DNA of 62,732 nt, counting the filler, from Nitrospirota bacterium (lineage in GTDB: Bacteria; JACPQY01), in assembly GCA_016180645.1 (NCBI GenBank). It is 3 parts of 3 records of this genome, joined end to end, with 100 filler letters (N's around TTAATTAATTAA, not from the genome) between each part and the next. Parts side by side here need not be neighbours in the genome. Positions count along the whole stretch, not along the records: positions 1 to 31,543 come from JACPAV010000004.1; 2 more parts are not named here. The stretch is one strand, 5' to 3'. The notes under the pieces are model-generated. The model saw only the letters and a list, made by a program, of their open reading frames with translations. It searched no databases and had not been told where the DNA came from. Positions 712-31,025 of the stretch are shown here, piece after piece. A program made the translations under genes and the position numbers. Numbering within the stretch: position 1 is the first letter of the stretch; every line of letters begins with the position of its first letter.

Positions 712-1029
712 ATGGGAACAAAATTGTATGTTGGTGGACTGTCCTATTCGACGACCACCGAAGAACTTCAGGGCGCGTTTTCGCGAGTGGGCCAGGTGCA
801 ATCGGCCACGATCATTACGGACAAGATGACCGGACGATCCCGAGGATTTGGCTTTGTGGAGATGAGCACGCAGGAGGAAGCGAATGCGGCCATTTCTCAG
901 CTCAATGGTCAGACGTTGGGTGATCGCACGATCACGGTGAACGAAGCACGCCCGCAGGCTCCCCGCTCAGGCGGTGGAGGCGATTTCAGGGGCGGCAACC
1001 GCGGAGGTCGCTCGGGCCAACGATGGTAG
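712..1029 (+). CDS. RRM RNA-binding protein (Rbp family)
   Basis: RNP2 LYVGGL, RNP1 RGFGFVEM, Gly/Arg-rich tail; GAGG RBS. Confidence 0.95.
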   Translation: MGTKLYVGGLSYSTTTEELQGAFSRVGQVQSATIITDKMTGRSRGFGFVEMSTQEEANAAISQLNGQTLGDRTITVNEARPQAPRSGGGGDFRGGNRGGRSGQRW

Positions 1030-6824: not shown

Positions 6825-7487
6825 TCATTCGTCGGATTTCCTCGACCAGAACTCACGGACCTGCTCGAAGCGAGATACCCGTTCGCCAATCTTCGCGATC
6901 TCTTTAGGGTAGAACTCCAACATGACATCGCAAAACTCCAACATCCAACGCTTCCGCGGGTACCCCGGATTCACGGTCACACGATTCGAGTTGGCGATCT
7001 GAATCTGGCCCCAGCCGAGGGCCCCGATCGTCAGGCAATCCCATCCAAGGAATTCGATGGGCACGAATGTGACATGGGTGACCTTTGCCTTCACGCCCTC
7101 GACGCTGTAGCTGACGAGAAGAACCGTGAAGAAGTTGCTGTCGTCCTCGTAGAAACGCGCCAACCGTTCCACGGAAGTAAGGTTCGGCATGTTGAACTTC
7201 GTGTCGGTCCTGTGCGTCTTGACGTCGACGATGTAGTACAGTCCTTCGCGATCCTTGAACGCAAGGTCAGCCATTGCCCGGCGAGCGAAGTTCGGGGAGT
7301 ACTCGCCACAGTGCTCGCCAAGAATGTTCTCGAAGGATGCCGCTACGACGTTTTCGATGGCATCTCCCACAGCCCTGGGGCTCTGGGCGGTGTTCTTCGA
7401 TAGGAAATCTGGACTGCCATTGATCAAATCTCGGACCCGGGCCTGGATCAACACGTAGTCATTGCTATGAAAGAGCCGGCTCATCAT
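6825..7487 (-). CDS. Putative type II restriction endonuclease (PD-(D/E)xK)
   Basis: GDAIE..MADLAF..IVDVKT motif; overlaps the methyltransferase stop. Confidence 0.7.
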   Translation of the reverse strand: MMSRLFHSNDYVLIQARVRDLINGSPDFLSKNTAQSPRAVGDAIENVVAASFENILGEHCGEYSPNFARRAMADLAFKDREGLYYIVDVKTHRTDTKFNMPNLTSVERLARFYEDDSNFFTVLLVSYSVEGVKAKVTHVTFVPIEFLGWDCLTIGALGWGQIQIANSNRVTVNPGYPRKRWMLEFCDVMLEFYPKEIAKIGERVSRFEQVREFWSRKSDE

Positions 7488-8491
7488 GACTGATCCTCGA
7501 TTAGGAAAGACTGCGCGGTCGTGTTGGATCTCGGCGTTGAGTTCTTCGTGTCCTGGAACGCGAGAGAATTACGTTCCCAGAAGTAGCCACCGGAGTAGCC
7601 CTGAATCGAAGGCTCGTGATGAGAAAGCTCCAACCGCTTCTCGGCAAGCAGGCAGTAGATTTCCTCCTGCTCAATGCCGATGAATTGTCGACCGAGTTTT
7701 TTCGCTACCACTGACGTGGTGCCGGAACCCAAGAAAGGATCGAGCACACAGTCTCCGGGCTTTGAGCTGGCGAGCAGAAGCTTGGCGAACAGTTTCTCCG
7801 GTTTCTGAGTCGGGTGCTCCGTGTTCTCTGGCATGGACCAGAAGGGAACTGAGATATCAGTCCATAGGTTTGAAGGGTGGGTCACTCGGAAACCGCCGTT
7901 GGCTTCCTCGTTCCAGTCCTTCGGCTTTCCGTCTACGTCACGATAGGGCGCAATCACCCGGCGCTTTTGCTTCACGGCCTCTACGTTAAAGGAGTACTGG
8001 TCGCTGAGAACACAAAACCAAATGTCCTCGGAGCAGTTCTTCCAGTTACGTAAGGCGCCGCGGCCTTTCTCACGTTCCCACGTGATCCGGTTCTGCACAA
8101 GAAAGTACCGTTCAAGAGCACGTTGGACGACTCCAGAGGATCGCCATTCGCTGCACACATACACTGAGGCCGAAGGCTTTAAGAGTTCGACAGCCAGCGA
8201 GAGCCAAGAGTGTAGCCACTCTTCGTATGCCGCGAGGGGCTGTCTCTTGAATGTGGAGCTTCTGAATTCCTTGGTTAGGTTGTAGGGCGGATCAACGATC
8301 AGCAAGTCCACGGACTTCTTGGGCAATAGGGGCAGGACCAACAATGAGTCGCCGAGGATCGTTCGCCCGGCGCATTCCGACAAAGTCACTGGCTGATTGA
8401 CAGAAAGCAGTCGCCTACGCAGGCGTTCGGCGTCTTGCTCAGAGAGTGCCAGCGTCCTGTTCCGTGGTGCTCGCAATGCTGGTTCTCTCAT
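7484..8491 (-). CDS. DNA amino-methyltransferase (N4-C/N6-A, beta class)
   Basis: DPPY precedes HPTQKP and VLDPFLGSGTT; start MREPA after AGAGGAAGG. Confidence 0.92.
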   Translation of the reverse strand: MREPALRAPRNRTLALSEQDAERLRRRLLSVNQPVTLSECAGRTILGDSLLVLPLLPKKSVDLLIVDPPYNLTKEFRSSTFKRQPLAAYEEWLHSWLSLAVELLKPSASVYVCSEWRSSGVVQRALERYFLVQNRITWEREKGRGALRNWKNCSEDIWFCVLSDQYSFNVEAVKQKRRVIAPYRDVDGKPKDWNEEANGGFRVTHPSNLWTDISVPFWSMPENTEHPTQKPEKLFAKLLLASSKPGDCVLDPFLGSGTTSVVAKKLGRQFIGIEQEEIYCLLAEKRLELSHHEPSIQGYSGGYFWERNSLAFQDTKNSTPRSNTTAQSFLIEDQS

Positions 8492-8523
8492 GCCTTCCTC
8501 TGCAAGCAATGCCGCTTCATGAC

Positions 8524-8598
8524 GACCAACGTTTGCGCTGACCCGCGGTCGCTATAGATTCCTCAATGGCGCCCGTCGGGTCAAGCGCCTTGTTCGCC
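8524..8598 (-). mobile_element. Integron attC site
   Basis: Minus strand GGCGAAC-AAGGCGCTTGACCCGAC...GCGGGTCAGCGCAAAC-GTTGGTC, 75 bp, 7 nt after the mrr stop. Confidence 0.8.
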
Positions 8599-8605
8599 GG
8601 CAACA

Positions 8606-9496
8606 TCACTTCTTGAAGTCCTCGAAAAAGGATTCGTCGATAACGAAAGCAGCCCGGGGCTTGAGGCCGAGCTCAAGCTTTTCGAACATATCGAGTAGCT
8701 TCTCGCCATCTACAAGCTCTATCGGAGGGACACCATCTCGCACAGCTTCTTGACGAGCGTCGGCCGTGAAAGTTCCTGTCGTAAGAATGATGCCCTTGTC
8801 AGCACGGCCGGCCATGGCTCCTCTGAAATCACGCACCTGTCCAGGCGTGACTGTGCCACTATACTTCTTACACTGGAAGAGAACGCGGAAGCTGACGAAG
8901 GGATTGACTTCAAGAACGCCATTCCCATCAATTCCCCCGTCACCAGATCGCCCGGTAACCGTTACATGCTGGAATCCCGACTCTCGAAGTAGCCGCTGAC
9001 ACAGTCTTTCAAAACCAGCAGAGGGGAGCGCTCTTATCAGCAGCAACAGACCTTCACGGTGGCCATGGCCCCGCGCCGCTACCGCAGACTCCGGCAATGA
9101 CTCTTCAAGAAGCTGTTCTGTTCCATCCGTCCTTGGTTTTGCTTTCCACTCGGCAGTGAACAACTTGTGCAACTCCCTAAAGAGCTGCAAGGCCGCCGCA
9201 TGAGACAGAGTGGTTGCGCGCCCCTTCTCTGTCAGGCTCCATACACCTCGTTTCGACGACTCGTCCAGCAAGCGAGCTCGGGTTAGGTAGAACCGAGCCC
9301 ATGCCACTTGATTCGCAAACCGAGATTGGCCACTCTCCATCTGTTCGCCCTGCTCCTTCTCCGAGATGCTAAGAAGCGAGACAGTCTTGTTTCGGACCTC
9401 TTCCGGACTACCCGAGCCGCCAAGTTCTTTCAATGCTTCAAGGACGGGACCGAAATATCGTACAAAGCGCGGCCCTTTCCCTTCGTTTTTACTCAT
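8606..9496 (-). CDS. mrr: Mrr restriction endonuclease (type IV)
   Basis: Mrr_N (NQVAWARFYL..RGVWSLT) plus catalytic FERL..GDGGIDG..QCKKY..VRDFRG. Confidence 0.92.
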   Translation of the reverse strand: MSKNEGKGPRFVRYFGPVLEALKELGGSGSPEEVRNKTVSLLSISEKEQGEQMESGQSRFANQVAWARFYLTRARLLDESSKRGVWSLTEKGRATTLSHAAALQLFRELHKLFTAEWKAKPRTDGTEQLLEESLPESAVAARGHGHREGLLLLIRALPSAGFERLCQRLLRESGFQHVTVTGRSGDGGIDGNGVLEVNPFVSFRVLFQCKKYSGTVTPGQVRDFRGAMAGRADKGIILTTGTFTADARQEAVRDGVPPIELVDGEKLLDMFEKLELGLKPRAAFVIDESFFEDFKK

Positions 9497-9639
9497 TTCA
9501 TGCCCCCTTGGCGGTCGTCCTGGTCCGGTAAACCACTGACTAGGTAACCATCTTACCCTGATATTCCAGCCATCTGGCGGTCTCCTGGCGGTTTTGGACG
9601 ATACCCGTAACTGACGCGGCCAAGGGCCATTTGGGAGAT

Positions 9640-9668
9640 ACGGTATGCCTCCGCTCACCCAAGGTCAA
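9640..9668 (-). promoter_or_regulatory. Putative sigma-70 promoter driving the cassette array
   Basis: Minus strand TTGACC-N17-TACCGT upstream of mrr. Confidence 0.4.
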
Positions 9669-11203: not shown

Positions 11204-12709
11204 TCATCGCGCGGCTCCCCCGATCTTGGCGTGGGCCAGTTCGAATGACACGCTGAACTGAACCTCCCCGCCCGAAGTCGCGCGAGTCTGGGCGAGCTTT
11301 ACATTTCGCAGGAGCTTGGAGGTTTGCAGGCCTTGGTAAATGGATTCCGCGCCGGCAAACGAGGACGCCCGCCCTTCAAGCGTGCCGCGGACTTCTTCGA
11401 TCTTGAGGGCGTAGATGGTGGCGAGGCTCTCCTCGGGAAGCAGGCGGCTGATGTCGGTCAGGATGTCGAGCGCCGAGGGCGTGTTCTGCGCGCCGCGCTG
11501 GGCCATTTCGAGTCGGTGTGCGCGGGCTTTCAGATCCTCCACTTCCTTCCCGGCGGGTGTGGAGGCGCCTTCGGGGACCAGTCTCAGATAGTCCGAGCGC
11601 ATTTGAGATCTAATCTTGCCGGACTGCCGCATGCGCACAATCGCTCCCGTCGCGAAATCGGCGAACACGGCGCCCGCGAGAACGGCGGCCAGAAGGACGG
11701 GCCCCTTCCACTCCGCCTGCCAGAACGCGCGCTGTCGTCGGTACTCCAATTCACCCTGACGAAGATTCAGGCGCGAGAGGTCTCTCGAGTCCATTGCGCT
11801 CAGGGCGCTCCCAAGCGCGACAAGGGTGCGCTGACGATCCTGCGGCGCCGTGCGGGCCGGACCCCCGGCCGAGGTAGCGGGTGACAGGGGCGGAGCGGCC
11901 TCGACCTTCAGACCGAGCTCTTCACGGAGGCGGGAGATGGCCGGGTCGTCCGGAGAGAGATCCCCGCTCATGAAGAATCGTTCTACCGGCATTTGGAATT
12001 CGACCTCCGAGTGGGAAAGAACCTGACGCATGTTCCGCACGAGCTGCGCCTCGGGTCCGTGGCCGTTCCGGCTGAGGAACACCGTGTGTCCGACTTTGAG
12101 AAGGCCGTTTTCGAAAACTCCTATGGAGGCATAGCCGTCCGCCACATGCAGGACTCCGACCGGTTTCGCGGTGGGTGGACCGGCCAGGACCACCTGGCCG
12201 AGCGCCACAAGGCTGCTCTGCACCCGGGTCGGCTCGAGCCCGGCTTCCTTGAGCGTAGTCAGGAGCCCCTTGAGCGCCTCTTTCTTCGAGCCGACGACGA
12301 ACACCTTTGCCCCCGCGGCTTCGCTGCCGAGGATGGCGAAATCGAAAACCACCTGCTCGATTTCCAAGGGCAGTTGGTCCTCCATCTCGCCGGGGAGCAC
12401 CGCTTCGAGGCGGCGGCGATCCTTGAATTTTGATTTTACGATGAACGTCTTGTGGAAGACGCGGTTCGACGGCACCGCGAGCACGATTTCGCGAATCTGT
12501 TCCGGCGAGACCAGCTTTTTCCGGAGCGCAACGAGCGCCTGCTTTAGAGCGGCCTCCGGGGCGAGGTCGGGTCCGGAAGGGACCGGTTCGACATAGAGCT
12601 TCAACCCCTCGGGTTTCCGGGCGTTTCCGGACAGCTCTACGGCCTGGATGGAGAGGCGGCCGATATCAAGCCCCAGGACTCTCTTGGAAAGACCGATGCG
12701 GCGGATCAT
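11204..12709 (-). CDS. gspL: Type II secretion protein L (PilM-like actin domain plus PilN-like region)
   Basis: VLGLDIG, EDQLPL, NLRQGE before the TM, PSALDIL..LEG; start uncertain. Confidence 0.8.
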   Translation of the reverse strand: MIRRIGLSKRVLGLDIGRLSIQAVELSGNARKPEGLKLYVEPVPSGPDLAPEAALKQALVALRKKLVSPEQIREIVLAVPSNRVFHKTFIVKSKFKDRRRLEAVLPGEMEDQLPLEIEQVVFDFAILGSEAAGAKVFVVGSKKEALKGLLTTLKEAGLEPTRVQSSLVALGQVVLAGPPTAKPVGVLHVADGYASIGVFENGLLKVGHTVFLSRNGHGPEAQLVRNMRQVLSHSEVEFQMPVERFFMSGDLSPDDPAISRLREELGLKVEAAPPLSPATSAGGPARTAPQDRQRTLVALGSALSAMDSRDLSRLNLRQGELEYRRQRAFWQAEWKGPVLLAAVLAGAVFADFATGAIVRMRQSGKIRSQMRSDYLRLVPEGASTPAGKEVEDLKARAHRLEMAQRGAQNTPSALDILTDISRLLPEESLATIYALKIEEVRGTLEGRASSFAGAESIYQGLQTSKLLRNVKLAQTRATSGGEVQFSVSFELAHAKIGGAAR

Positions 12710-12880
12710 TCGCAGCCATTTTAGCACAGCCTGCCGCACCCCGCCTTCTTTTGCCTCCCATCGTGGTCGGCTTGCGTGGCGGGGTACCGCACCGTCCCTG
12801 GCTGGCACTTGCCGTTCAGGCGCCGCCCGTCCTTGAGACGGCTTTCCTGGCGGCAAGTACCGCACCCTCCCTGGCTGGCC

Positions 12881-12908
12881 TTGACGCATGTCAGCTCTAT
12901 GTTATGAT
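12881..12908 (+). promoter_or_regulatory. Sigma-70 promoter of the zapB-like/zapA operon
   Basis: TTGACG-N16-TATGAT with extended TG; implies a near-leaderless GTG start at 12916. Confidence 0.55.
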
Positions 12909-21460: not shown

Positions 21461-22450
21461 CTAAGGCAGAAGCTGCCAGGGATCGCTTTTGAAGAGCCAG
21501 CGATCGAGATGCTGGAGCAGAATGGCGGGGAATTCCGTCTGAACGATCTGGATGCCGGCGTCGAAGATGGGGGAATAGTGGGACGTGTCGTGCGTTCCTT
21601 GCTTGCTCCGCAGGACCGTCACGGCATCCTCTGTGAAGATGTCGGAGAAGAGCTTGGGCTCGGAACCGACGAGGGGGCGGGCTTGAGGGCCGAGCGGCCA
21701 AGGGATCTCGAAGATTTCGGGTCGGCGGTCGAAGAGCGCGAGGTGCCGGCGGATCTCCTCTTCCGTATCCGGGCGGACCTGCACGTGGACGGCGGGATTC
21801 AGCTTCCGTGCTTGAACGGCGCGCTCCGCGTCGGACACGCTGATCATGACTTGATCGATCATTCCGGAGGACTCGATCGCCTGAACCACGAGATCGATTC
21901 GACTCGTCTTGGTATCCAAAATAATCACCAGCCGGTCCCGGGCGATCGCCAAGGCGTCCTCGAAGGCAGGCACATGGTCGCATGCGAAATCTCCCTTGAA
22001 GCGGTTGTTTGGCGCAAGGAGCGGAATCGATGTGATCTCGCCGGCCGACTTCGTTTCCACTTCCGCGTCGATGCCGGTCGTGCGTTTCATGTTGCCGTCG
22101 TGCATGAGGATGAGTCGGCCATCGGAGGTATCTCTCACGTCGATTTCTGATCCATCGGTTCCCATCCAGACGGCGGCGCGCAGACCGGAGAGGCTGTTCT
22201 CGGGCGCGATCACGCCCCCTTCCCCGCCGGCGCCTCGATGCACCACCACCGTCGGTCCTTGGTTACACGTGGAATCGATGACACAACCCAACGGAACGGG
22301 CGAGCGGCGCAGAGGCAGCTTTGATGTGGAGGTGCAGTCGAAGAGCGATGGAGAAAACGTTTCGGGGGCCGTCGGCAGGGGTTCATCGTTGCCGCACCCT
22401 ATCCCGTGGATGCCGGCGAGAACGAAAAGCGCCAGTGCCGATCGGGTCAT
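21461..22450 (-). CDS. Glycerophosphodiester phosphodiesterase family lipoprotein
   Basis: VHRGA..APENS..EIDV..ILMHD..KRTT; lipobox GIGC. Confidence 0.88.
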   Translation of the reverse strand: MTRSALALFVLAGIHGIGCGNDEPLPTAPETFSPSLFDCTSTSKLPLRRSPVPLGCVIDSTCNQGPTVVVHRGAGGEGGVIAPENSLSGLRAAVWMGTDGSEIDVRDTSDGRLILMHDGNMKRTTGIDAEVETKSAGEITSIPLLAPNNRFKGDFACDHVPAFEDALAIARDRLVIILDTKTSRIDLVVQAIESSGMIDQVMISVSDAERAVQARKLNPAVHVQVRPDTEEEIRRHLALFDRRPEIFEIPWPLGPQARPLVGSEPKLFSDIFTEDAVTVLRSKQGTHDTSHYSPIFDAGIQIVQTEFPAILLQHLDRWLFKSDPWQLLP

Positions 22451-22556
22451 GCGAGTCTTTTAGCCCAGACCTTCAATCGGGTAAAGCCAACCGCGAGGAG
22501 AATCCACCGTGTAACAATTGACCGAACTCACGCCCTCAATACTGGGAGCAAACATA

Positions 22557-22724
22557 ATGACGTTTGAAAACGGCTTGGTCCTTGCAGGATTCATGGTCGG
22601 ATGGATCGTACTCCAGACGTGGGTCCTCCCGCGGCTGGGTGTGCCGACTTGAGCGCGTCCCGACGCGTGCCGGCCGGCGCGCAAGGCAGATCCGGCACCG
22701 GACAAGCCGGAGGAAGGGAGTTGA
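22557..22724 (+). CDS. Candidate small membrane selenoprotein (UGA 22650-22652 as Sec)
   Basis: GGAG RBS; MTFENGLVLAGFMVGWIVLQTWVLPRLGVPT-UGA-ARPDAC...EEGS; SECIS-like hairpin 22665-22682; extended frame stops 1 nt before the next ATG. Confidence 0.6.
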
Positions 22725-22725
22725 G

Positions 22726-23118
22726 ATGGCCACGTTTGGAATGAGAAAGGAATTGAATTCGACGTATGACGCCGCGCTGTCCAGTGTGCCGGATGCGCTC
22801 AAGAGCGAGGGGTTCGGCATCCTGACGGAAATCGACGTGAAAGACACGCTGAAGAAGAAATTGAACGTCGATTTTCGCCGTTACAAGATCCTGGGCGCCT
22901 GCAATCCACCTTTTGCCCACAAGGCTTTGCAAGCGGAGTTGGAGATCGGGCTCCTGATGCCGTGCAATGTGATTATCTACGAGGGAGATTCCGGGAAGGC
23001 CGTGGTCGCGGCGGTTGATCCGGTCCTGACGATGGCGGCCCAGGGGAACGCACGGGTCAAGGAGATTGCCGGAGAGGTGCGGGAGAAGCTGACGAGAGTC
23101 TTGGAAAGGCTGTGCTGA
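22726..23118 (+). CDS. DUF302 family protein
   Basis: EGFGILTEIDV..YKILGACNP..IGLLMPCNV; start MATFG after GGGAG. Confidence 0.9.
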   Translation: MATFGMRKELNSTYDAALSSVPDALKSEGFGILTEIDVKDTLKKKLNVDFRRYKILGACNPPFAHKALQAELEIGLLMPCNVIIYEGDSGKAVVAAVDPVLTMAAQGNARVKEIAGEVREKLTRVLERLC

Positions 23119-23129
23119 GGAGATCGTCG

Positions 23130-23801
23130 ATGGGAATGATTTCAGAGAAAGACGGCCAGGCCATCCGGGACCACTTCAACGGAAACCTGTCGGCGCCGGT
23201 CAAGATCGAATACTTCACCCGGCCGGACAGCCGGATCTTCGTGCCCGGCCGCGAGGAATGCGCGACCTGCAAGGAAACGGGCGAACTCTTGGGCGAGGTT
23301 GCCGCCCTGTCGGATCAGCTCACGCTTGACGTTCACGACATCACGCGCGACGCGGCCCGTGCCGATGAGCTTGGAGTCAAACGGGTTCCGGCCTTCGTGC
23401 TCTCAGGCGCGGCGAAGGGCCGAGTTCGGTACTTCGGAATCCCATCGGGCTATGAATTCTCCGCGCTGATCGAAGATCTGGTTGACGTATCCAAGGGGGA
23501 AGCCGACCTGAGCCAGAAGACGCTCGATGCCCTGGGAACGCTGGATAAGGACCTCCACATTCAGGTTTTCGCCACGCCGACCTGACCCCACTGCCCCGGT
23601 GCGGCCAGGCTGGCCCACAAATTGGCCATCGCGAGCGAGCGCGTGACGGCGGACGTCATCGAGGCCAACGAATTTCCGGATTTGGTTCAGAAATACCGCG
23701 TCTCCGGCGTCCCCAAGATCATCGTCAACGACACCGTCGAATTCGTCGGCGCCCAGCCGGAATCCCGATTCGTCTCCGAAGTCCTCCGCGCTGTCGAATA
23801 G
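23130..23801 (+). CDS. Protein-disulfide oxidoreductase / AhpF-N-like selenoprotein (CATC + UPHC)
   Basis: Two thioredoxin folds; GIPSGYEF; VFATPT-UGA-PHC continues in frame to VSGVPKI..FVGAQPE; SECIS-like hairpin 23599-23618. Confidence 0.9.
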
Positions 23802-23817
23802 GCACCCGGTCGGCCTC

Positions 23818-23997
23818 TCAGCGCAGTCGGGCGAGGACGTGGAGAAACTCCCAGAGGCCGTCTTTTTCGCGGCGGACGGAAAGGATCCGGAAACGATCGC
23901 ATAGAATTCGGCGCAAGTCCGCGGGAGTGAAGAAGTGATCGTAGTGGTTACGGTGGATGATCCAGTCCCGCTTGGCGGCCCTCTCCGCAGCCAAGAT
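23818..23997 (-). pseudogene. Possible C-terminal gene fragment (methyltransferase-like)
   Basis: Open stretch RDWIIHRNHYDHFFTPADLRRIL..FRILSVRREKDGLWEFLHVL with no start; family call is by impression only. Confidence 0.35.
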
Positions 23998-24006
23998 TCA
24001 GTGAAG

Positions 24007-24136
24007 ATGTGGTGATGGGGTCATGCAAAAATGTGGGGATGTGGACATGTAGTCATGTGATCATGTGCTCGGACGGGTGTCTCTTCTCCGTCACATGACC
24101 TCATGACTCCATGAATACATGACAACATTCCTTCAT
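24007..24136. repeat. Inverted pair of octamer tandem arrays
   Basis: ATG every 8 nt (24007-24063, 8 units), then CAT every 8 nt (24094-24134, 6 units). Confidence 0.8.
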
Positions 24137-24141
24137 GCGGC

Positions 24142-25365
24142 CTACATCGTGATCTGGCTGAGCTGGAGAATCGGTAGCAGGATGGAGAGCAGGAGGAAGA
24201 CGATTACGCCGGCCATCACAATGATCATCACCGGTTCGAGGAGCGTGACGAGGCCGTTGATCTTCGTTTCCGTTTCCATCTCGTAGTTCTGGGCGACTTT
24301 CATGAGCATCTCTTCTAGGGCGCCGCTGCGCTCGCCGACGGCCACCATGTGGATGAGGATGGGCGGATAGAGTCCGCTTCGTCGGAGCGGCTCATGGAGA
24401 GGCGCGCCTTCCGAGACGCGCTTGCGGGCCTCATCGATCGAAGCGGCGAGGATCACGTTGTTGACCACCGGTTTGGAGATCTCCAGCGCCGGGAGGATGT
24501 TCACGCCGCTCGAGAGGAGTGTACTCAGCGTGCGGCTGAATCGGGCCACCGCGAGTTCACGGACGATCTTCCCGAAGACGGGCAGCATGAGGAAGAACCG
24601 ATCGAAGACCAACCTCCCCCGGTCGGTCTTGCGGAAGCGATTGAGTGAGTACAGGCCTCCGGCGATGGCCAGGATGAGGAGCCACCAGAAGCGGCTGAAG
24701 TTCCTCGACATCATGAGGAGGATCCGGGTCATGAGCGGGAGCGTCATTTCCATCTCTTCAAAGATCGAGAGGATGCGGGGCAGCAGAAATGTGAACACCA
24801 GGAAGATGAACACGGAACCGACCACCGTCATGAAGACCGGATAGTAGAGGGCGCGGCGGATCCGGTTCTGAATGGCCACTTGGTTCTCGAGGAATTCCGC
24901 GAGCCTGAGGAGGACCGCATCGAGCGCGCCGCTGGCCTCGCCGGATCTCACCATGTTGACGTAGAGAAAGGAGAACACCTCCGGAAACTCCATCATGGAG
25001 TCGGCGAGGGATTTTCCTTCGTTTACGCTCTGTCGAACCTGGGAGAGGACCTTCTTCATTTTGGGATCGTCCACCTGCTCGATAAGGGCGGTCAGGGTCT
25101 CATAGACCGTGAGTCCGGCCGCGAGGAGCGTGGCGATCTGGCGGGTGATCGCTGCCACGTCCTGCGTGCTGGCGCGGCGGAACGGGAGGGAGATGGCGAA
25201 TTTGGAAAGAGGCTTGGCTTCCTGGAGAACGCCCTCCTTGACGGCCGTGGCGTAGACTCCGTCCTTCTTCAACTTGGCGCGCGCGGTGCGGGGGTTGTCC
25301 GCATCGACCACGCCGGCGACGGTCTTCCCGTCGGTTTTGTATCCTTCGTATTCGAACAGCGGCAT
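24142..25365 (-). CDS. gspF: Type II secretion inner-membrane platform protein F
   Basis: TRQIATLL, GEASGALD, GERSGALE, LEPVMI. Confidence 0.95.
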   Translation of the reverse strand: MPLFEYEGYKTDGKTVAGVVDADNPRTARAKLKKDGVYATAVKEGVLQEAKPLSKFAISLPFRRASTQDVAAITRQIATLLAAGLTVYETLTALIEQVDDPKMKKVLSQVRQSVNEGKSLADSMMEFPEVFSFLYVNMVRSGEASGALDAVLLRLAEFLENQVAIQNRIRRALYYPVFMTVVGSVFIFLVFTFLLPRILSIFEEMEMTLPLMTRILLMMSRNFSRFWWLLILAIAGGLYSLNRFRKTDRGRLVFDRFFLMLPVFGKIVRELAVARFSRTLSTLLSSGVNILPALEISKPVVNNVILAASIDEARKRVSEGAPLHEPLRRSGLYPPILIHMVAVGERSGALEEMLMKVAQNYEMETETKINGLVTLLEPVMIIVMAGVIVFLLLSILLPILQLSQITM

Positions 25366-25370
25366 GGGCG

Positions 25371-25775
25371 CTAATGGGAAAGCCAGTTGATGGTGATGAT
25401 GGACTCCACTTGCTTGAAGTCCTTATCCACGGTGTGGAGAACGGCGTTTCGCATTCGAGCGAGACCCGCGGCAAAGGAGTCGCCCAGCGACATCCGATAG
25501 GTGGACTTGATGGCTGCCGCGGCCTCCGAAACTTCGAGATCGGCGGGGATGACGAGAATGGGCAGCCGGAGGACGTCGCCTCGAACGCCTTGCCACTGAC
25601 GTTCACCCCATTTCTTGACGGCCGCGTAGGTGACCTCCGCCCAATTTGGGCCCGACAGGAGGATGGGTTTTCCGGCCTGAAAAGCGTTCTCCAGCAGTTC
25701 GGTCACCGCCGGGGCGCAAGGTTCCTCAAAGAGGTAGGCCAGGACCGCGGAACTATCGAATACCGAATCTCGCAA
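25371..25775 (-). CDS. vapC: VapC PIN-domain toxin
   Basis: VFDSSAVLAY..NWAEV..SLGDSF..TVDKDF; TTG start. Confidence 0.88.
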   Translation of the reverse strand: MRDSVFDSSAVLAYLFEEPCAPAVTELLENAFQAGKPILLSGPNWAEVTYAAVKKWGERQWQGVRGDVLRLPILVIPADLEVSEAAAAIKSTYRMSLGDSFAAGLARMRNAVLHTVDKDFKQVESIITINWLSH

Positions 25776-26016
25776 GTTTCTTCTCTTCCCGCTCCAGGTC
25801 CCGGCGCCTCTCATCAACAAGATCTTGCACGGCAGACCCGTCGCTCTTCAGAATCCCGCGAAGGCTTCGGATGAACTCCTTCGTGATGGGCTGGAGAAGG
25901 ATCTTGTTGCCCTGTTCGATGAAGGCGACCTTCGTCCCTTTCTTGATCCCGTATTTCTTGCGGAGCGGCGCCGGAATCACGAGCTGCCCCTTGCTGGTCA
26001 CCGTGCCTTGATCCAT
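25753..26016 (-). CDS. AbrB/MazE-family antitoxin
   Basis: VTSKGQLVIPAPLRKKYGIKKG; overlaps vapC. Confidence 0.9.
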   Translation of the reverse strand: MDQGTVTSKGQLVIPAPLRKKYGIKKGTKVAFIEQGNKILLQPITKEFIRSLRGILKSDGSAVQDLVDERRRDLEREEKKLARFGIR

Positions 26017-26104
26017 TTCGACCTCCAGAGAGGGATTCTTACATTACCATCAAAGTAAGTCAATCGAGAGAAAGTAATACGCCGAGCCGCCGGTCCGCAG
26101 GCCC

Positions 26105-27808
26105 CTACGCCAGTTCGAGGACTTCTTCCTGGGTGACGCGGAGGACTTCTTCGATGGTGGTGAGGCCGGCCTTCACTTTGTTGGCGCCATCTTCGCGGAG
26201 GGTGATCATGCCCTTGGAACGGGCCATCCGCTTGATGACGTTGGCGTCGGATTTCTGGACGATGAGTTCCTGGATGTAGCCGTCCACCAGGAGCACTTCA
26301 AAAATCCCAAGGCGGCCCATGAAGCCGGTGAAAAAGCATTGGGGGCAGCCTTTCCCGCGGAAGAACTGAATGCCGTTCGAGTCGCCGTTGATGCCGAGTT
26401 CCTCCACTTGGGACTGGGTCGGGACATACGCCTCGCGGCAGTCGGGGCAAATCGTCCGGATCAGCCGTTGGGCGATGACGGCGGTGAGGGAGGAGGAAAT
26501 CAGGAACGGCTCGATGCCCATGTCGATGAGCCGGGTGAGCGTGCCGGCCGCGTCGTTGGTGTGGAGAGTGGAGAAGACCAGGTGGCCGGTGAGGGAGGCC
26601 TGAATGGCGATCTCGGCGGTTTCGGCGTCGCGGATTTCGCCGACGAGGATGATATCCGGATCTTGACGCAGAATCGACCGGAGGGCGTTGGCGAACGTCA
26701 GTTCGATCTTCGGGTTCACCTGGATCTGTCCGATGCCCTTGATCTGGTATTCGATCGGGTCTTCCACCGTGATGATGTTCTTGTCCGGCGAATTGATTTT
26801 CGAGATGGCCGCGTAGAGCGTGGTGGTTTTTCCGGAACCCGTGGGGCCGGTCACCAGGATGATCCCGTTGCTGCGCTTGAGAAGGACGTCCAACATGCGG
26901 AGGTCCTTCTCGCCCATGCCGATTTCCGGGAGGTCGAGGAGCCCTTTGCTCTTGTCGAGCAGTCGCATGACGATGCGTTCACCGAAGGCGGTGGGAACCA
27001 CGGAGACGCGCACGTCCACGTCCTTTCCGGCGATGCGGAGCCGGATGCGCCCGTCCTGGGGCAGCCGCTTCTCCGCGATGTTCATGCCCGCCATGACTTT
27101 GATACGCGAAGTGATGGTGGGCTGGGCCGCTTTCGGGGGCGTGTGGACGTTGTAGAGGATGCCGTCCACTCGGTATCGAACCACCACCTCCCGCTCGAAC
27201 GGTTCGATGTGGATGTCGGTCGCGCGCTGCTTGATCGCGTTGTAAAGGAGCGAATTGACGAGGCGGATGATCGGTTGCTCATCCGTCACGTCCAAGAGGT
27301 CCTCCGGCTCAGGCAGGGCCTCGGCGTCGATGCCGAGGGTCTCATCCTTCAACTCCTCCATGGCCCGGCCGCTCGCGGCGAGTTTGTCGTAGATCTGATT
27401 CGTCAGGGCGACGATCCGGTCTTTCTCAGCCAGAAAAAGATCGAGAGGGCTTTCCAGGACCAGCCCCAGATCGTCGATCCCTTCGATGTCGAGGGGGTCG
27501 TGCAGAACCGTCAGGATGCTGCCGTTTTCGCGTTTGAGCGGGAGGATGTGATGGGTTCGCACGAATTGAATGGGAATGCGCTCGGCGAGTTCAATCTGGA
27601 GATCTTCGGGCGTTTTCTGGAGGATGGGGATGTCGAACTGCCGGCTGAGCGCCTGAATCAAATGCGTCTCATTGATCGACTTCTGCCTGACGAGGATCTC
27701 GCCGATACGTCCGCCTTTTGACTTCTGGGCCTCCAGCCCGTTTTCCACGGCTTCGGCCGAAATGCCGTAGTCCTGGACGAGAATTTCGCCGAGCTTGCGA
27801 TGGGTCAC
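26105..27808 (-). CDS. gspE: Type II secretion ATPase E
   Basis: MshEN-like KLGEIL, GPTGSGKTT, LRQDPD..GEIRD, tetracysteine motif. Confidence 0.96.
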   Translation of the reverse strand: MTHRKLGEILVQDYGISAEAVENGLEAQKSKGGRIGEILVRQKSINETHLIQALSRQFDIPILQKTPEDLQIELAERIPIQFVRTHHILPLKRENGSILTVLHDPLDIEGIDDLGLVLESPLDLFLAEKDRIVALTNQIYDKLAASGRAMEELKDETLGIDAEALPEPEDLLDVTDEQPIIRLVNSLLYNAIKQRATDIHIEPFEREVVVRYRVDGILYNVHTPPKAAQPTITSRIKVMAGMNIAEKRLPQDGRIRLRIAGKDVDVRVSVVPTAFGERIVMRLLDKSKGLLDLPEIGMGEKDLRMLDVLLKRSNGIILVTGPTGSGKTTTLYAAISKINSPDKNIITVEDPIEYQIKGIGQIQVNPKIELTFANALRSILRQDPDIILVGEIRDAETAEIAIQASLTGHLVFSTLHTNDAAGTLTRLIDMGIEPFLISSSLTAVIAQRLIRTICPDCREAYVPTQSQVEELGINGDSNGIQFFRGKGCPQCFFTGFMGRLGIFEVLLVDGYIQELIVQKSDANVIKRMARSKGMITLREDGANKVKAGLTTIEEVLRVTQEEVLELA

Positions 27809-27819
27809 CCCATCCCCTC

Positions 27820-30060
27820 CTACTGCCCTTCTTTTGTGGGCGGCGGCGGTTCCTGGGCCGGAGGCTCCGGAGTGGGAGATTCTTCCTTGGGTTTTGGGGG
27901 GGGCGTGGGTTCGGGTGGCGCCGGGCTTGCGTCAAAATTCTTTTCGGCCTCTCCGGAGCGCGGCGAATCAGGTGGCGCCGGTTCCTCCAGCCGATCACGC
28001 AGTTTCTTTGTTGCTTTTCTGTGCTCCTTCGTGGCGCGTTCGATGGTCTGGCGCATTTCCTGTTCCTTCCGGAGACCGAGATCGCGCACTTCTTCCGGTG
28101 TGCTGAGAACATAGGGAGTCAGGAAGATGAGCAGATTCGTCTTCAGAAGCGTTTTCTTCGACGACCGGAAGAGCCAACCGATGATGGGGATGTCGCCGAG
28201 AATCGGGACCTTGCTTTCGCTGATGCTGATCGTATCTTCGAGGAGGCCGCCGATGACCACCGTCTGTTTGTCCTGCACGACCAACGTGTTCTTGACCTGT
28301 CTTTTCCGCGTGATGAGGCCCTGTTGGCCGACCTGGAATCCGGTGGGCACCGACTCACTCACCGCGGAGATCTCCTGAGAGATCTTCAGGCGGACGGCCC
28401 CGCTCTCGTTGATTTGCGGTGTGACTTTAAGATTGATGCCCACGTCTTTTCGCTCGATGTTCTGGATGATCGGCGCGCCGGCCAGCGTCGATTGCTGCGT
28501 CTGGGTGATGAACGGAATGTTCGAGCCGACGATGATCTCGGCCTCCTCGTTGTCCATGGTTAGAATCTGTGGCGTGCTGAGGATGTTCACGTCGTTGTCG
28601 GAGGCCAGAGCGTTGAGGAACGCGCCGAAGGTGGGAAAGGCCAGCTTGGCGCCGCCGACATCAATCTCGAACTTCTCACCGAGGATTCCGAAGAACACGC
28701 CCGGCTTGGCGAAAGTGGCAATGCCCGTCCCGGCGGATGCCCCGGTCGCGCCGGTTCCTCCCCCGAGGGGAATGAGGGTGCTCGATCCGCCCAGGTTCGT
28801 GCCGCCGAAGGTGATCGCCCCGGCGCCGTCCTTGGAGGCCTGGCCGCCGTGGGCCACGATCCCCCACTCCTTCTTTCGATCAAACGAGACTTCCATGACC
28901 ACGCCTTCGACGTAGACCTGCTTGCGACGGACGTCGAGCTGCTGGATGACGGAATCGATGACCTCGTAGTCCCGCTGCGAGGCAATGATGATGAGAGAAT
29001 TCGTGGCCTTGTCCGCCGTGATTTTGACTCCGCCCTCCAACGTGACGCTCGATGGGGAGCCTCCGCCGCCGGGCTGGGAGGGGGGCGAGGGCTGCCCCGG
29101 CATTCCGGCGGATCCCGTTTGCCGCGTGGGAAGCCCCGACACGAGGCTGGCCAGCACTTGCGCGAGTTGCTCGGCATCCGCATAGTTGAGCGAGCGGACA
29201 CGGATCCGCCCGCCACCCGCCTCCACCGGCACGTCCAGATCCCCGATCAGCTTCTTGAGTTTCTCGATTTCGAGCCGGGGGCCGACGACGATGAGGACGT
29301 TCATCCTCTCATCCGGAATGATTTTCGTGATTCCTCCGGCGCCGGGCTGGCTGCCCGCGCGGCCGACCCGTCTTTGCCGTCCGGTCTGTTCAACGAAGAT
29401 TTGTGAGATCTGCTGGGCCAACGTGACCGCCGTCGCATATTTCAGGCGGACAATTTCGACGATGTCTTCGAAACCGGGAACGTCCAGCGTGTCGATGATA
29501 CGGAGGAGGCGAAGGATATTGGCCGATGTGTCGATGAAGATGAGCGTGTTGGTGGCGAGATAGGATTTGATCACGCCGTTGCGGGACACGAGATCGCGCA
29601 GGAGTCCTTCGATTTCGTCCGCGGGCACGTACTGGAGAGGAACCAGGCGCGTGATGAAGGTTTCCACCGGCGGGAGGGGCGTCTGTTCCACGCTCGTGGG
29701 AATGCTCTCCTGTTTGGCGTCCGTGGCCGGAATGATTTTCATGATCTTTCCGGAAGGTACGAGCGTGAACCCACGCACATTCATGACGCTCTCGTAGACG
29801 TGATAGGCCTCTTCGACGGTGACCGGCTGGGGCGAGATGATGGTGATCTTGCCGCGCACGCGCTCGTCGAGAATGAAGTTCTTCCCGGTCAGATTGCTGA
29901 TGGTTTTCGTGAGATCCTTGATGTCGAATTCGCCGTCGATGTTGACTTTCTCTTTCGGATCGAAGGTGGGCTTCCTGGCTGGCGCACCCGGCGCGGGGGC
30001 CTGGCCGGTGAATAGCAGGAAAAAGGCGAGGCCGATGGCGGCCCTGGAGAGAGGGCTCAC
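27820..30060 (-). CDS. gspD: Type II secretion secretin D
   Basis: KNFILDERVRG N0, ADKATNSL, NILSTP..DNEEA, KVPILGDIPIIGWLF. Confidence 0.96.
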   Translation of the reverse strand: MSPLSRAAIGLAFFLLFTGQAPAPGAPARKPTFDPKEKVNIDGEFDIKDLTKTISNLTGKNFILDERVRGKITIISPQPVTVEEAYHVYESVMNVRGFTLVPSGKIMKIIPATDAKQESIPTSVEQTPLPPVETFITRLVPLQYVPADEIEGLLRDLVSRNGVIKSYLATNTLIFIDTSANILRLLRIIDTLDVPGFEDIVEIVRLKYATAVTLAQQISQIFVEQTGRQRRVGRAGSQPGAGGITKIIPDERMNVLIVVGPRLEIEKLKKLIGDLDVPVEAGGGRIRVRSLNYADAEQLAQVLASLVSGLPTRQTGSAGMPGQPSPPSQPGGGGSPSSVTLEGGVKITADKATNSLIIIASQRDYEVIDSVIQQLDVRRKQVYVEGVVMEVSFDRKKEWGIVAHGGQASKDGAGAITFGGTNLGGSSTLIPLGGGTGATGASAGTGIATFAKPGVFFGILGEKFEIDVGGAKLAFPTFGAFLNALASDNDVNILSTPQILTMDNEEAEIIVGSNIPFITQTQQSTLAGAPIIQNIERKDVGINLKVTPQINESGAVRLKISQEISAVSESVPTGFQVGQQGLITRKRQVKNTLVVQDKQTVVIGGLLEDTISISESKVPILGDIPIIGWLFRSSKKTLLKTNLLIFLTPYVLSTPEEVRDLGLRKEQEMRQTIERATKEHRKATKKLRDRLEEPAPPDSPRSGEAEKNFDASPAPPEPTPPPKPKEESPTPEPPAQEPPPPTKEGQ

Positions 30061-30119
30061 GGGATTCGGGGGGCTATCCTCGCGGTCGAATCCGCGCAGG
30101 AAGAGTCGCAGATCGAGCG

Positions 30120-31025
30120 TTACCGGATGTCATAGTTGAAACTTTGGGCCGAGCCGTCGCGTTCCAGATCCAGGGAGAGGCGGGAGGCTGCCTTGAGCTG
30201 CGTGAACGCTTGGAGCGCTTCTTCGGTCGTCGTGATGTTCAAGCCGTTGATGCGGCGGAGGACGTCGCCGTTCTTGATCCCGATCTGGTCGAAGAGACTG
30301 TCCGGGCGGATCGAGAAGATCCGGAAGCCGTCGGGCTTGCCTTTGTCGAAGTGCGGCACCACGCGGGCCTGCGTCAGGAGCGTGCTGAGGTTTGAGAGGT
30401 GTTCGTTGACCGTGTTGCGGTCGAGTCTGTACTGGCCGGGCGCGACCTGCTGAGGCGGCGCGGTGGGGCCCGAAGGAGCGGGTGGGCTGTAGCTCGCGGT
30501 CTGAGGTTGCGCATCCACGGGCCTCGGTTTCCCCTCCTCGCAGAGCACGAGTTTCTCCAGGTACCCGAGCCGCTCGAAGTAGACCACCTGTCGATCCACT
30601 TTGACCAGCTTGACGTCCGGCTTGATCATGCCGCCGACGAAAAACAGATTGACGTCTTTGTTCGGGGTGTCGAGATCCTGGATGGACGCGAAGGAGTGGT
30701 CGGCTTGAGAGCTGACCACGGTGCCCACCAGACACAGGTTGAGCGAAGTGTGTTGAGCCGCATTGGGATCGATATCGGGTGTGGTTCCCTGGGCCGCCTG
30801 ATTCTCGGTGGCGGCGCCGAAAATATTTTTGTCGAGAATGGGCGAGTAGTCTTTGGCTGCCTGAACGGTGGTGGGTGCCTCCACGGGCGCCAAGGCCGCG
30901 GGTTTGGGCCGCGAACCGAAAGCCAAGTTCTGATCGATCACCGTCGTAACGAGATGGGCGTTGACGTACGAGATCAGCGTGAGAAGGGCAATGTTGATAA
31001 TGGTGCCGAGTTTCTGGGCGGTCAT
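30120..31025 (-). CDS. gspC: Type II secretion protein C (with PDZ domain)
   Basis: TM, L.LVGTV homology region, QARVVP..GFRIFSIRP..GIKNGDV. Confidence 0.92.
   Translation of the reverse strand: MTAQKLGTIINIALLTLISYVNAHLVTTVIDQNLAFGSRPKPAALAPVEAPTTVQAAKDYSPILDKNIFGAATENQAAQGTTPDIDPNAAQHTSLNLCLVGTVVSSQADHSFASIQDLDTPNKDVNLFFVGGMIKPDVKLVKVDRQVVYFERLGYLEKLVLCEEGKPRPVDAQPQTASYSPPAPSGPTAPPQQVAPGQYRLDRNTVNEHLSNLSTLLTQARVVPHFDKGKPDGFRIFSIRPDSLFDQIGIKNGDVLRRINGLNITTTEEALQAFTQLKAASRLSLDLERDGSAQSFNYDIR

Follow-up and report, generated by a model that had tools for sequence, protein, structure and literature searches.

A candidate family of small membrane selenopeptides, encoded beside DUF302 and a selenocysteine-type disulfide oxidoreductase in a Nitrospirota genome

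Results

Two genes with in-frame TGA codons flank a DUF302 gene

We analysed a 62,732-nt stretch of DNA from a Nitrospirota bacterium (assembly GCA_016180645.1), hereafter the window, and focused on three closely packed plus-strand genes at positions 22557–23801. They encode a small membrane peptide (gene 1), a member of the DUF302 family (gene 2) and a protein disulfide oxidoreductase (PDO; gene 3). Genes 1 and 3 are each interrupted by an in-frame TGA, and both of these TGAs are very probably selenocysteine (Sec, U) codons. Read through its TGA, gene 1 (22557–22724) runs from an ATG at 22557 to a second TGA at 22722–22724, which serves as the stop, and encodes 55 amino acids; the internal TGA (22650–22652, read as U32) stands in the codon context GTG CCG ACT TGA. 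A single base, 22725, separates the gene 1 stop from the ATG of the DUF302 gene (22726–23118, 130 amino acids). The PDO gene (23130–23801, 223 amino acids, two thioredoxin-fold units) begins with an ATG 11 bases beyond the DUF302 end, so the intergenic gaps are 1 and 11 nt. Its TGA (23583–23585, U152) follows ACG CCG ACC and specifies the first residue of the C-terminal UxxC motif. Ribosome-binding-like GGAG stretches accompany the three genes, and a consensus scan of 22300–24150 for promoters and terminators found none. Four DNA sequencing runs, all from one groundwater study, and no RNA run are listed as containing the sequence.

Each TGA is followed on the same strand by a hairpin resembling a bacterial selenocysteine insertion sequence (SECIS). 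The gene 1 hairpin (22665–22682) has a 7-bp stem, formed by 22665–22671 with 22676–22682, and a GGCC loop. The PDO hairpin (23599–23618) pairs GUG-(C)-GGCCA with UGGCC-CAC, giving 5 + 3 bp with one bulged C around a GGC loop. The loops start 19 nt after the TGA in gene 1 and 22 nt after it in the PDO gene. Open reading frame (ORF) calling under translation table 11 reduces gene 1 to a 44-amino-acid stub and splits gene 3 into pieces of 157 and 59 amino acids. A preliminary description of this DNA had reported the three tightly packed genes with 1- and 11-nt gaps, an in-frame TGA after CCG-ACY in genes 1 and 3, hairpins with G-bearing loops 19–22 nt past each TGA, and ORF calls that miss gene 1 and truncate gene 3; all four observations held at the coordinates given here. 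The shared CCG-ACY context, which places PT before U in both proteins, looks like each family's own conserved motif rather than a demonstrated joint recoding signal. The Cys forms at this context read GVPTC in the peptide family and TPTCPYC in PDO.

Gene 3 belongs to a known selenoprotein family

Gene 3 matched the NCBIfam model TIGR02187.2, 'PDO_seleno_TRX', with 256.8 bits (cut-off 185), its residues 6–220 covering positions 2–208 of the 209 in the model. TIGR02187 is listed as a selenoprotein family with a UxxC motif in Table 1 of a 2026 review (PMC13188914). The protein also aligned over its full length with two Pyrococcus PDO structures, 1j08 and 1a8l, placing its CATC and U-PHC sites in register with CQYC and CPYC, and U152 opposite the first Cys of CPYC in both structures. 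PDOs encoded near gene 1 homologues at three other loci (L115, L116 and L189) have Cys at the U position, within TPTCPYCP or TPSCPFCP. Judged by this match and alignment, gene 3 is an ordinary predicted Sec-type member of the known PDO/AhpF-N-terminal-like family. The TIGR02187 match thus agrees with the preliminary assignment of gene 3 as a Sec disulfide oxidoreductase truncated by gene callers; what it adds is a corrected annotation and nothing else new.

Gene 1 represents a widespread small membrane peptide family

The gene 1 peptide consists of a hydrophobic helix at about residues 6–24, the sequence RLGVPT-U32-ARPDAC and a charged tail. Its best 19-residue hydropathy window coincides with residues 6–24 (mean 1.88), and the hydrophilic tail contains five Lys and Arg residues. 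A word-based protein search with gene 1 returned only stubs ending in '...LPRLGVPT', and public gene callers give exactly the 31-amino-acid product. An exhaustive HMMER search with the peptide produced 35 matches, from which we set aside two: the top-ranked P0127, a protein of 1,918 amino acids with 15 repeated stretches that we took as low-complexity noise, and a 29-amino-acid stub. The remaining 33 are full-length proteins of 44–90 amino acids that share the helix and an LPxLG(I/V)PT motif. Cys occupies the Sec position in 28 of them (usually within CMSGAC), Arg in three (P0133, P0140 and P0144) and Trp in two (P0138 and P0151), the Arg and Trp residues falling exactly at that site. For two of these proteins a near-identical locus with TGA exists, L201 for P0133 and L115 for P0144; CGA variants, or gene calls that assume a different genetic code, could account for the Arg and Trp homologues.

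To collect the family at the DNA level we ran a pattern on metagenome contigs and on genomes; it encodes Q-x-(W/F)-x-L-P-x-L-G-V-x-T and then requires TG with any third base. The contigs yielded at least 121 loci, and TGA was the codon in all 121 of the matches listed. The pattern also occurred in 21 of 401 sampled Acidobacteriota genomes (about 5%), every time with TGA, and a reversed-pattern control gave no match. That TGY was missing from these matches is partly due to the pattern itself, which demands Val (GTN) ahead of x-T where many Cys forms carry Ile.

The core of the family, LP(R/K)(L/F)GV(P/S)T-U directly after the hydrophobic helix, is near-invariant, and the tails beyond it fall into two types. 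Type A tails read U-AVPxPRRSAR and often have a Cys at the very C terminus, as in most DUF302-linked type A peptides. Type B tails read U-x4-C, with the partner Cys five residues past U, and resemble the CMSGAC of the Cys forms. The window's own tail, U-ARPDAC-RPAR, is type-A-like, with its Cys six residues past U and no C-terminal Cys. Among 135 non-redundant tails, 67 have a Cys 4–6 residues beyond U. A Cys within the last four tail residues was found in 15 of 20 DUF302-linked peptides, compared with 12 of 50 type-A-like peptides without DUF302 (Fisher P = 1.2 × 10−4).

The family medians are a net charge of −1 over the first six residues and three Lys and Arg over the first 15 residues of the tail. 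With an acidic or neutral N terminus and a tail rich in Lys and Arg, the peptide would, by the positive-inside rule, probably have its tail in the cytoplasm, and the Sec, located where the helix ends, would lie on that side as well. DUF302, thioredoxin and PDO would then be on the same side. Homologues, TGA conservation and hydropathy together bear out the preliminary view of gene 1 as a membrane-anchored Sec peptide that ORF callers overlook.

We also asked whether the peptide is already catalogued. Against Pfam, the window peptide matched DUF5337 only, with 19.2 bits under a cut-off of 27, and against NCBIfam 20.0, including its NF04xxxx selenoprotein models, it had no match at E values up to 1. 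None of seven Cys forms matched Pfam-A; of ten compared with NCBIfam, nine had no match and one had chance-level matches only. No entry in the 119-family Table 1 of PMC13188914 fits the peptide, and the BSepDB main text does not mention membrane peptides. A literature search combining selenocysteine with small membrane protein returned nothing relevant at the level of listings. Given the lack of a Pfam-A or NCBIfam match and of a fitting entry in the review table, within the database releases and open literature covered, we treat the gene 1 peptide as an apparently uncatalogued, widespread family of bacterial selenoproteins. Bacterial selenoprotein families continue to be discovered at a regular pace, which makes a further one less surprising.

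Comparison among relatives supports selenocysteine decoding

Sec decoding of gene 1 can be shown by comparison: the TGA is conserved, homologues have Cys in its place, the hairpin is kept across the family, and genomes that carry the peptide encode Sec machinery. The bacterial SECIS consensus, as set out in section 5 of PMC13188914, has a G in the first two loop positions and a loop starting 16–37 nt from the UGA. We scanned each family sequence for a stem of at least 6 bp, a G in the first two loop positions and a loop start 14–39 nt from the U, and used mononucleotide shuffles as the control. Such hairpins were present in 54 of 61 non-identical type A sequences and 48 of 59 type B sequences, against 18% and 7% of the shuffles, respectively. 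Their stems comprise 20 distinct hexamers in type A and 30 in type B, indicating that the structure is conserved while its sequence changes. Loops across the family begin mostly 19–26 nt from the U of the UGA. The commonest type A loop is GGUC, which is the apical loop of fdhF.

Translation past the gene 1 UGA is likewise supported by comparison, and at the strength that comparison allows we regard it as shown. Coding conservation runs on in frame beyond the UGA, through the motifs U-AVPxPRRSAR or U-x4-C. In the window and at L001, L003, L020 and L024, the read-through frame extends as far as the DUF302 start despite differing tail lengths. Of 20 non-redundant loci, 17 have the DUF302 start −4 to +13 nt from the end of the peptide gene, whereas a stop at the UGA would leave 63–126 nt. 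Because the DUF302-linked read-through frame ends at the DUF302 start, the two genes have the arrangement expected for translational coupling.

Carrier genomes also encode the decoding machinery. All four genomes that have both peptide and DUF302 contain selB, selA and tRNA-Sec above cut-offs. Among the Acidobacteriota, selB is present in 21 of 21 peptide carriers compared with 296 of the 401 genomes overall (hypergeometric P = 0.0014); this tally includes the three unpublished genomes G028, G053 and G156, none of which carries the peptide, and becomes 293 of 398 when they are left out. When the pattern was set to TGY, it matched two Acidobacteriota genomes, in one case a chance 22-amino-acid ORF and in the other a genuine Cys form (L223, GTCMSGAC). 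Both of these genomes are without a selB match at E values up to 1e-60, an observation that is anecdotal with its single genuine Cys case. At L223 (genome G364), a gene for a rhodanese-domain protein is located on the same strand, about 460 nt upstream of the gene for this Cys form, which fits a sulfur-transfer theme.

DUF302 carries two family-wide cysteines

Gene 2 matched Pfam PF03625 (DUF302) over the whole profile (1–63 of 63; E = 9.4e-27, 93.1 bits against a gathering score of 23). Its two cysteines, in GACNP and PCNV, had been described beforehand as conserved-looking (GACNP and MPCNV), and they proved to be invariant in 22 of 22 aligned relatives. Both are also conserved in the solved homologues PDB 1j3m (TT1751) and 1q9u (APC35924), which come from Thermus and a Bacillus relative. 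Common to the whole family and not specific to this operon, these cysteines are by themselves no argument for the relay from peptide through DUF302 to PDO that the preliminary description had proposed.

In the literature consulted, DUF302 is linked only to sox sulfur-oxidation clusters (PMC5037610). A literature search conducted largely at listing level found no mention of a pairing between DUF302 and a selenopeptide. At L018, in an Ignavibacteria metagenome-assembled genome, the ORF directly before DUF302, about 200 nt upstream, also encodes a small membrane protein; it has a Cys pair (motif IGCLGASCPITGNPW) but differs from gene 1. The small membrane proteins with Cys that pair with DUF302 may therefore be of more than one kind.

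The peptide recurs in a loose module with thioredoxin-fold proteins and DUF302

We surveyed the gene neighbourhood from both ends. A DUF302-seeded sample comprised 80 genome loci at 52–69% identity from many phyla; the peptide lies directly upstream of DUF302 in four of them, and PDO occurs within 3 kb of DUF302 in none. The peptide-seeded sample comprised the 121 listed loci, duplicates included. Since 41 of these have no more than 336 nt of flank per side, the neighbour counts that follow are lower bounds. Neighbours were assigned by representative queries and Pfam, as spurious high-GC ORFs confused an all-against-all BLAST clustering.

DUF302 is the most frequent sulfur- or thiol-related neighbour, adjoining the peptide on the same strand in 24 of the 121 listed loci (16 directly downstream and 8 directly upstream). 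Thioredoxin genes are near the peptide in 16, ten of them directly upstream on the same strand. Less frequent neighbours are BLH-phosphatase/DUF442 proteins (7 loci), YgaP-like transmembrane proteins (6), FmdB zinc ribbons (5), MBL-rhodanese fusions (4) and PDO (3). Further sulfur-related neighbours include YeeE/YedE sulfur transport proteins (2 loci), a Cys/Met PLP enzyme and a fusion of rhodanese with a pyridine-nucleotide disulfide reductase domain of the CoA-disulfide-reductase type. Taken as a whole, this spectrum leans towards reactive sulfur species. ECF sigma genes lie within about 1.5 kb of the peptide in 21 listed loci. In two representative ECF ORFs, L153:2011–2853 (−) and L084:614–1435 (−), Sigma70_r2/r4 and zf-HC2 domains share a single ORF, an apparent fusion of sigma and anti-sigma factor.

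The preliminary description had proposed a three-gene redox operon; these PDO counts do not sustain it as a conserved unit. Tight coupling of gene 1 to DUF302 is supported by the spacing from stop to start given above. Each of the two mostly occurs without the other: they adjoin in only 24 of the 121 listed peptide loci and 4 of the 80 DUF302 loci. What recurs is a looser module of a thioredoxin-fold protein (thioredoxin or PDO), the peptide and DUF302. Five loci contain all three: in the window and L116 the thioredoxin-fold protein is PDO, and in L100, L170 and L024 it is thioredoxin. The order DUF442, peptide, DUF302 also recurs, at L085, L090, L107, L117 and L155 and additionally at L020. 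Among the 21 Acidobacteriota carriers, DUF302 adjoins the peptide in the seed genome only.

Other features of the window

Directly downstream of the locus, on the opposite strand, a type II secretion run occupies 24142–31025 (−) and includes components F, E (with an MshEN domain), the secretin D, and C with a PDZ domain. A PilM/type II secretion L-like gene is located at 11207–12889. Within the secretion run, overlapping ORFs of 149 and 87 amino acids at 25371–26016 (−) are, by eye, a candidate PIN-type toxin with an AbrB/SpoVT-type antitoxin. A DNA methylase gene (N6_N4_Mtase) adjoins a gene for an Mrr-type restriction endonuclease at 7487–9658 (−), probably forming a restriction-modification or Mrr defence pair. 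The ORF at 712–1026 (+) encodes a small RNA-binding protein of the RRM_1 type (E = 4.2e-23).

Discussion

We consider it likely that two genuine selenoprotein genes flank DUF302 at this locus, one for a PDO of known type and the other for a membrane selenopeptide of about 55 amino acids from an apparently uncatalogued family that would have a redox role with its partners. A number of observations weigh against this interpretation. Folded on their own, the 61-nt stretches after the two TGAs of the window show no advantage over shuffles (z = 0.01 and 0.85), and the minimum-energy fold includes the PDO hairpin but not the gene 1 hairpin; the significance of the window hairpins must therefore come from comparison with relatives. 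RNAalifold found no consensus structure in 59 ungapped type A sequences, because loops of 3–6 nt shift the stems out of register. The 62.7-kb window contains no tRNA detected by ARAGORN and no Rfam match at the gathering threshold, and selA, selB and selD are not among the 46 window ORFs scanned, so that the Sec competence of this organism would follow only from its two TGA genes and their relatives. With selB present in 74% of the Acidobacteriota, its occurrence in 21 of 21 carriers is only moderately strong evidence. Five homologues have Arg or Trp at the Sec position, and the window peptide does not have the C-terminal Cys typical of DUF302-linked forms. Finally, most peptide loci have no DUF302, thioredoxin or PDO, many neighbours being unrelated housekeeping genes, and some neighbours are linked to metals: ArsR (L111), TerB (L213), DUF305 (L103), a P-type ATPase (L113) and CusB-like HlyD proteins (L149 and L218).

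In the interpretation that we favour, the peptide would hold a selenol at the inner membrane surface, where its Sec/Cys pair might cycle between the selenol/thiol state and a selenenylsulfide. A neighbouring thioredoxin-fold protein, PDO in the window and thioredoxin elsewhere, would re-reduce it. Together with DUF302, the peptide could then act on reactive sulfur or on thiol-oxidising stress at the membrane. DUF302 might be a relay member, a client or merely co-expressed. A more far-reaching proposal can be offered tentatively, and we think it rather unlikely to hold in full: the whole peptide family, with U-x4-C or with U and a C-terminal Cys, would serve as the membrane redox partner of DUF302 and thioredoxin-fold reductases in dealing with reactive sulfur or thiol stress, and at DUF302-linked loci Sec decoding would also gate DUF302 translation. 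If this proposal is true, decoding of the Sec codon makes DUF302 expression dependent on selenium, DUF302 acquires its first functional context, and the small membrane selenoproteins known from eukaryotes gain a bacterial counterpart.

The best-surviving alternative, which we nonetheless regard as improbable, is that the peptide handles soft metals or metalloids. Its membrane Sec/Cys pair would bind Hg, Cu, Au, As or Te at the inner face in a Mer-like manner, with thioredoxin or PDO and DUF302 as accessories. The metal-linked neighbours listed above and the FmdB zinc ribbons at five listed loci are consistent with such a role, as is the presence of a putative mercuric transport selenoprotein among the families listed in PMC13188914. 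However, neither Sec nor Cys forms have a Pfam or NCBIfam match to MerT, MerE, MerF or any metal family, and neighbours related to sulfur and thiols (DUF302, thioredoxin, DUF442, YgaP-like transmembrane proteins and rhodanese fusions) are commoner.

The two regulatory alternatives appear less probable again. Gene 1 might act in cis as a regulatory leader, such that UGA decoding delivers ribosomes to the start of DUF302 or an ECF sigma gene in a selenium-dependent manner and the peptide itself is secondary. This would account for the spacing at the 17 of 20 DUF302-linked loci, short with read-through and long without it, and for the ECF sigma gene found directly downstream in the type B loci L094, L126, L135, L166, L184, L187 and L194. 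Yet the Cys forms, with the same helix and C-x4-C, require no recoding, most loci have no consistent downstream gene, and the strongly conserved membrane helix points to a functional product, although a leader and a functional peptide are compatible with each other. Marginally less credible still is a membrane redox sensor in which the peptide signals thiol-oxidising stress to an ECF sigma factor with a zf-HC2 anti-sigma-like extension. Such a sensor is suggested by the 21 listed loci with a nearby ECF sigma gene and by the combined Sigma70_r2/r4 and zf-HC2 architecture at L153 and L084. Against it, no sigma gene lies close to the locus in the window, and no anti-sigma domain can be recognised in the peptide, whose short cytoplasmic tail shows little conservation; adjacency may also reflect mere membership of a sigma regulon.

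That the gene 1 TGA is a plain stop, yielding a 31-amino-acid hydrophobic peptide and leaving the conserved stretch before DUF302 as RNA structure or a ribosome-binding region only, is very improbable: public gene callers do list this product and similar stubs ending at PT, the gene 1 hairpin is not significant alone and the organism's Sec competence is drawn from its TGA genes and relatives, but 28 of 33 full-length homologues have Cys at this codon and the same motifs beyond it, tails that differ in frame and length still end at the DUF302 start, 67 of 135 tails bear the in-frame Cys past U, and selB is found in every carrier genome examined.

Our favoured interpretation, of two selenoprotein genes around DUF302 with the peptide as a new family, has consequences for annotation and for function. 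Standard calling reduces the peptide to a stub of 31–44 amino acids or misses its gene, so a common small selenoprotein is absent from the annotations and inventories that we checked. DUF302 has two solved structures and no known function, and its recurrent coupled pairing with the peptide provides a concrete, testable lead. The placement of the peptide among thioredoxins, rhodanese fusions, DUF442 and YgaP-like genes provides another. Both bear on how bacteria position a selenol at the inner membrane surface.

Each part of the locus can be set beside a known system. The PDO differs in nothing essential from the Pyrococcus enzymes (1a8l and 1j08, both Cys forms), having CATC as its N-terminal site and U-PHC rather than CPYC as its C-terminal one, and is unusual in its position after a DUF302 gene. 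Gene 2 covers the whole domain seen in the DUF302 structures 1j3m and 1q9u and shares both cysteines with them. Decoding would resemble the SelB/SECIS system of the Escherichia coli fdhF type, with a stem-loop soon after the UGA and a G in the first two loop positions; it differs in the GGCC loop of the window's gene 1 and in having no Rfam model matched. For the peptide, the closest likeness, one of design, is to SELENOK and SELENOS, short eukaryotic proteins with one membrane helix and a Sec in a cytosol-facing tail, which have a proposed redox role at the membrane surface. The bacterial peptide would share their design of a single helix with a Sec-bearing cytosolic tail. It departs from them in carrying its Sec directly at the helix end and not near the C terminus, in being about half their size and in using a bacterial SECIS within the coding region.

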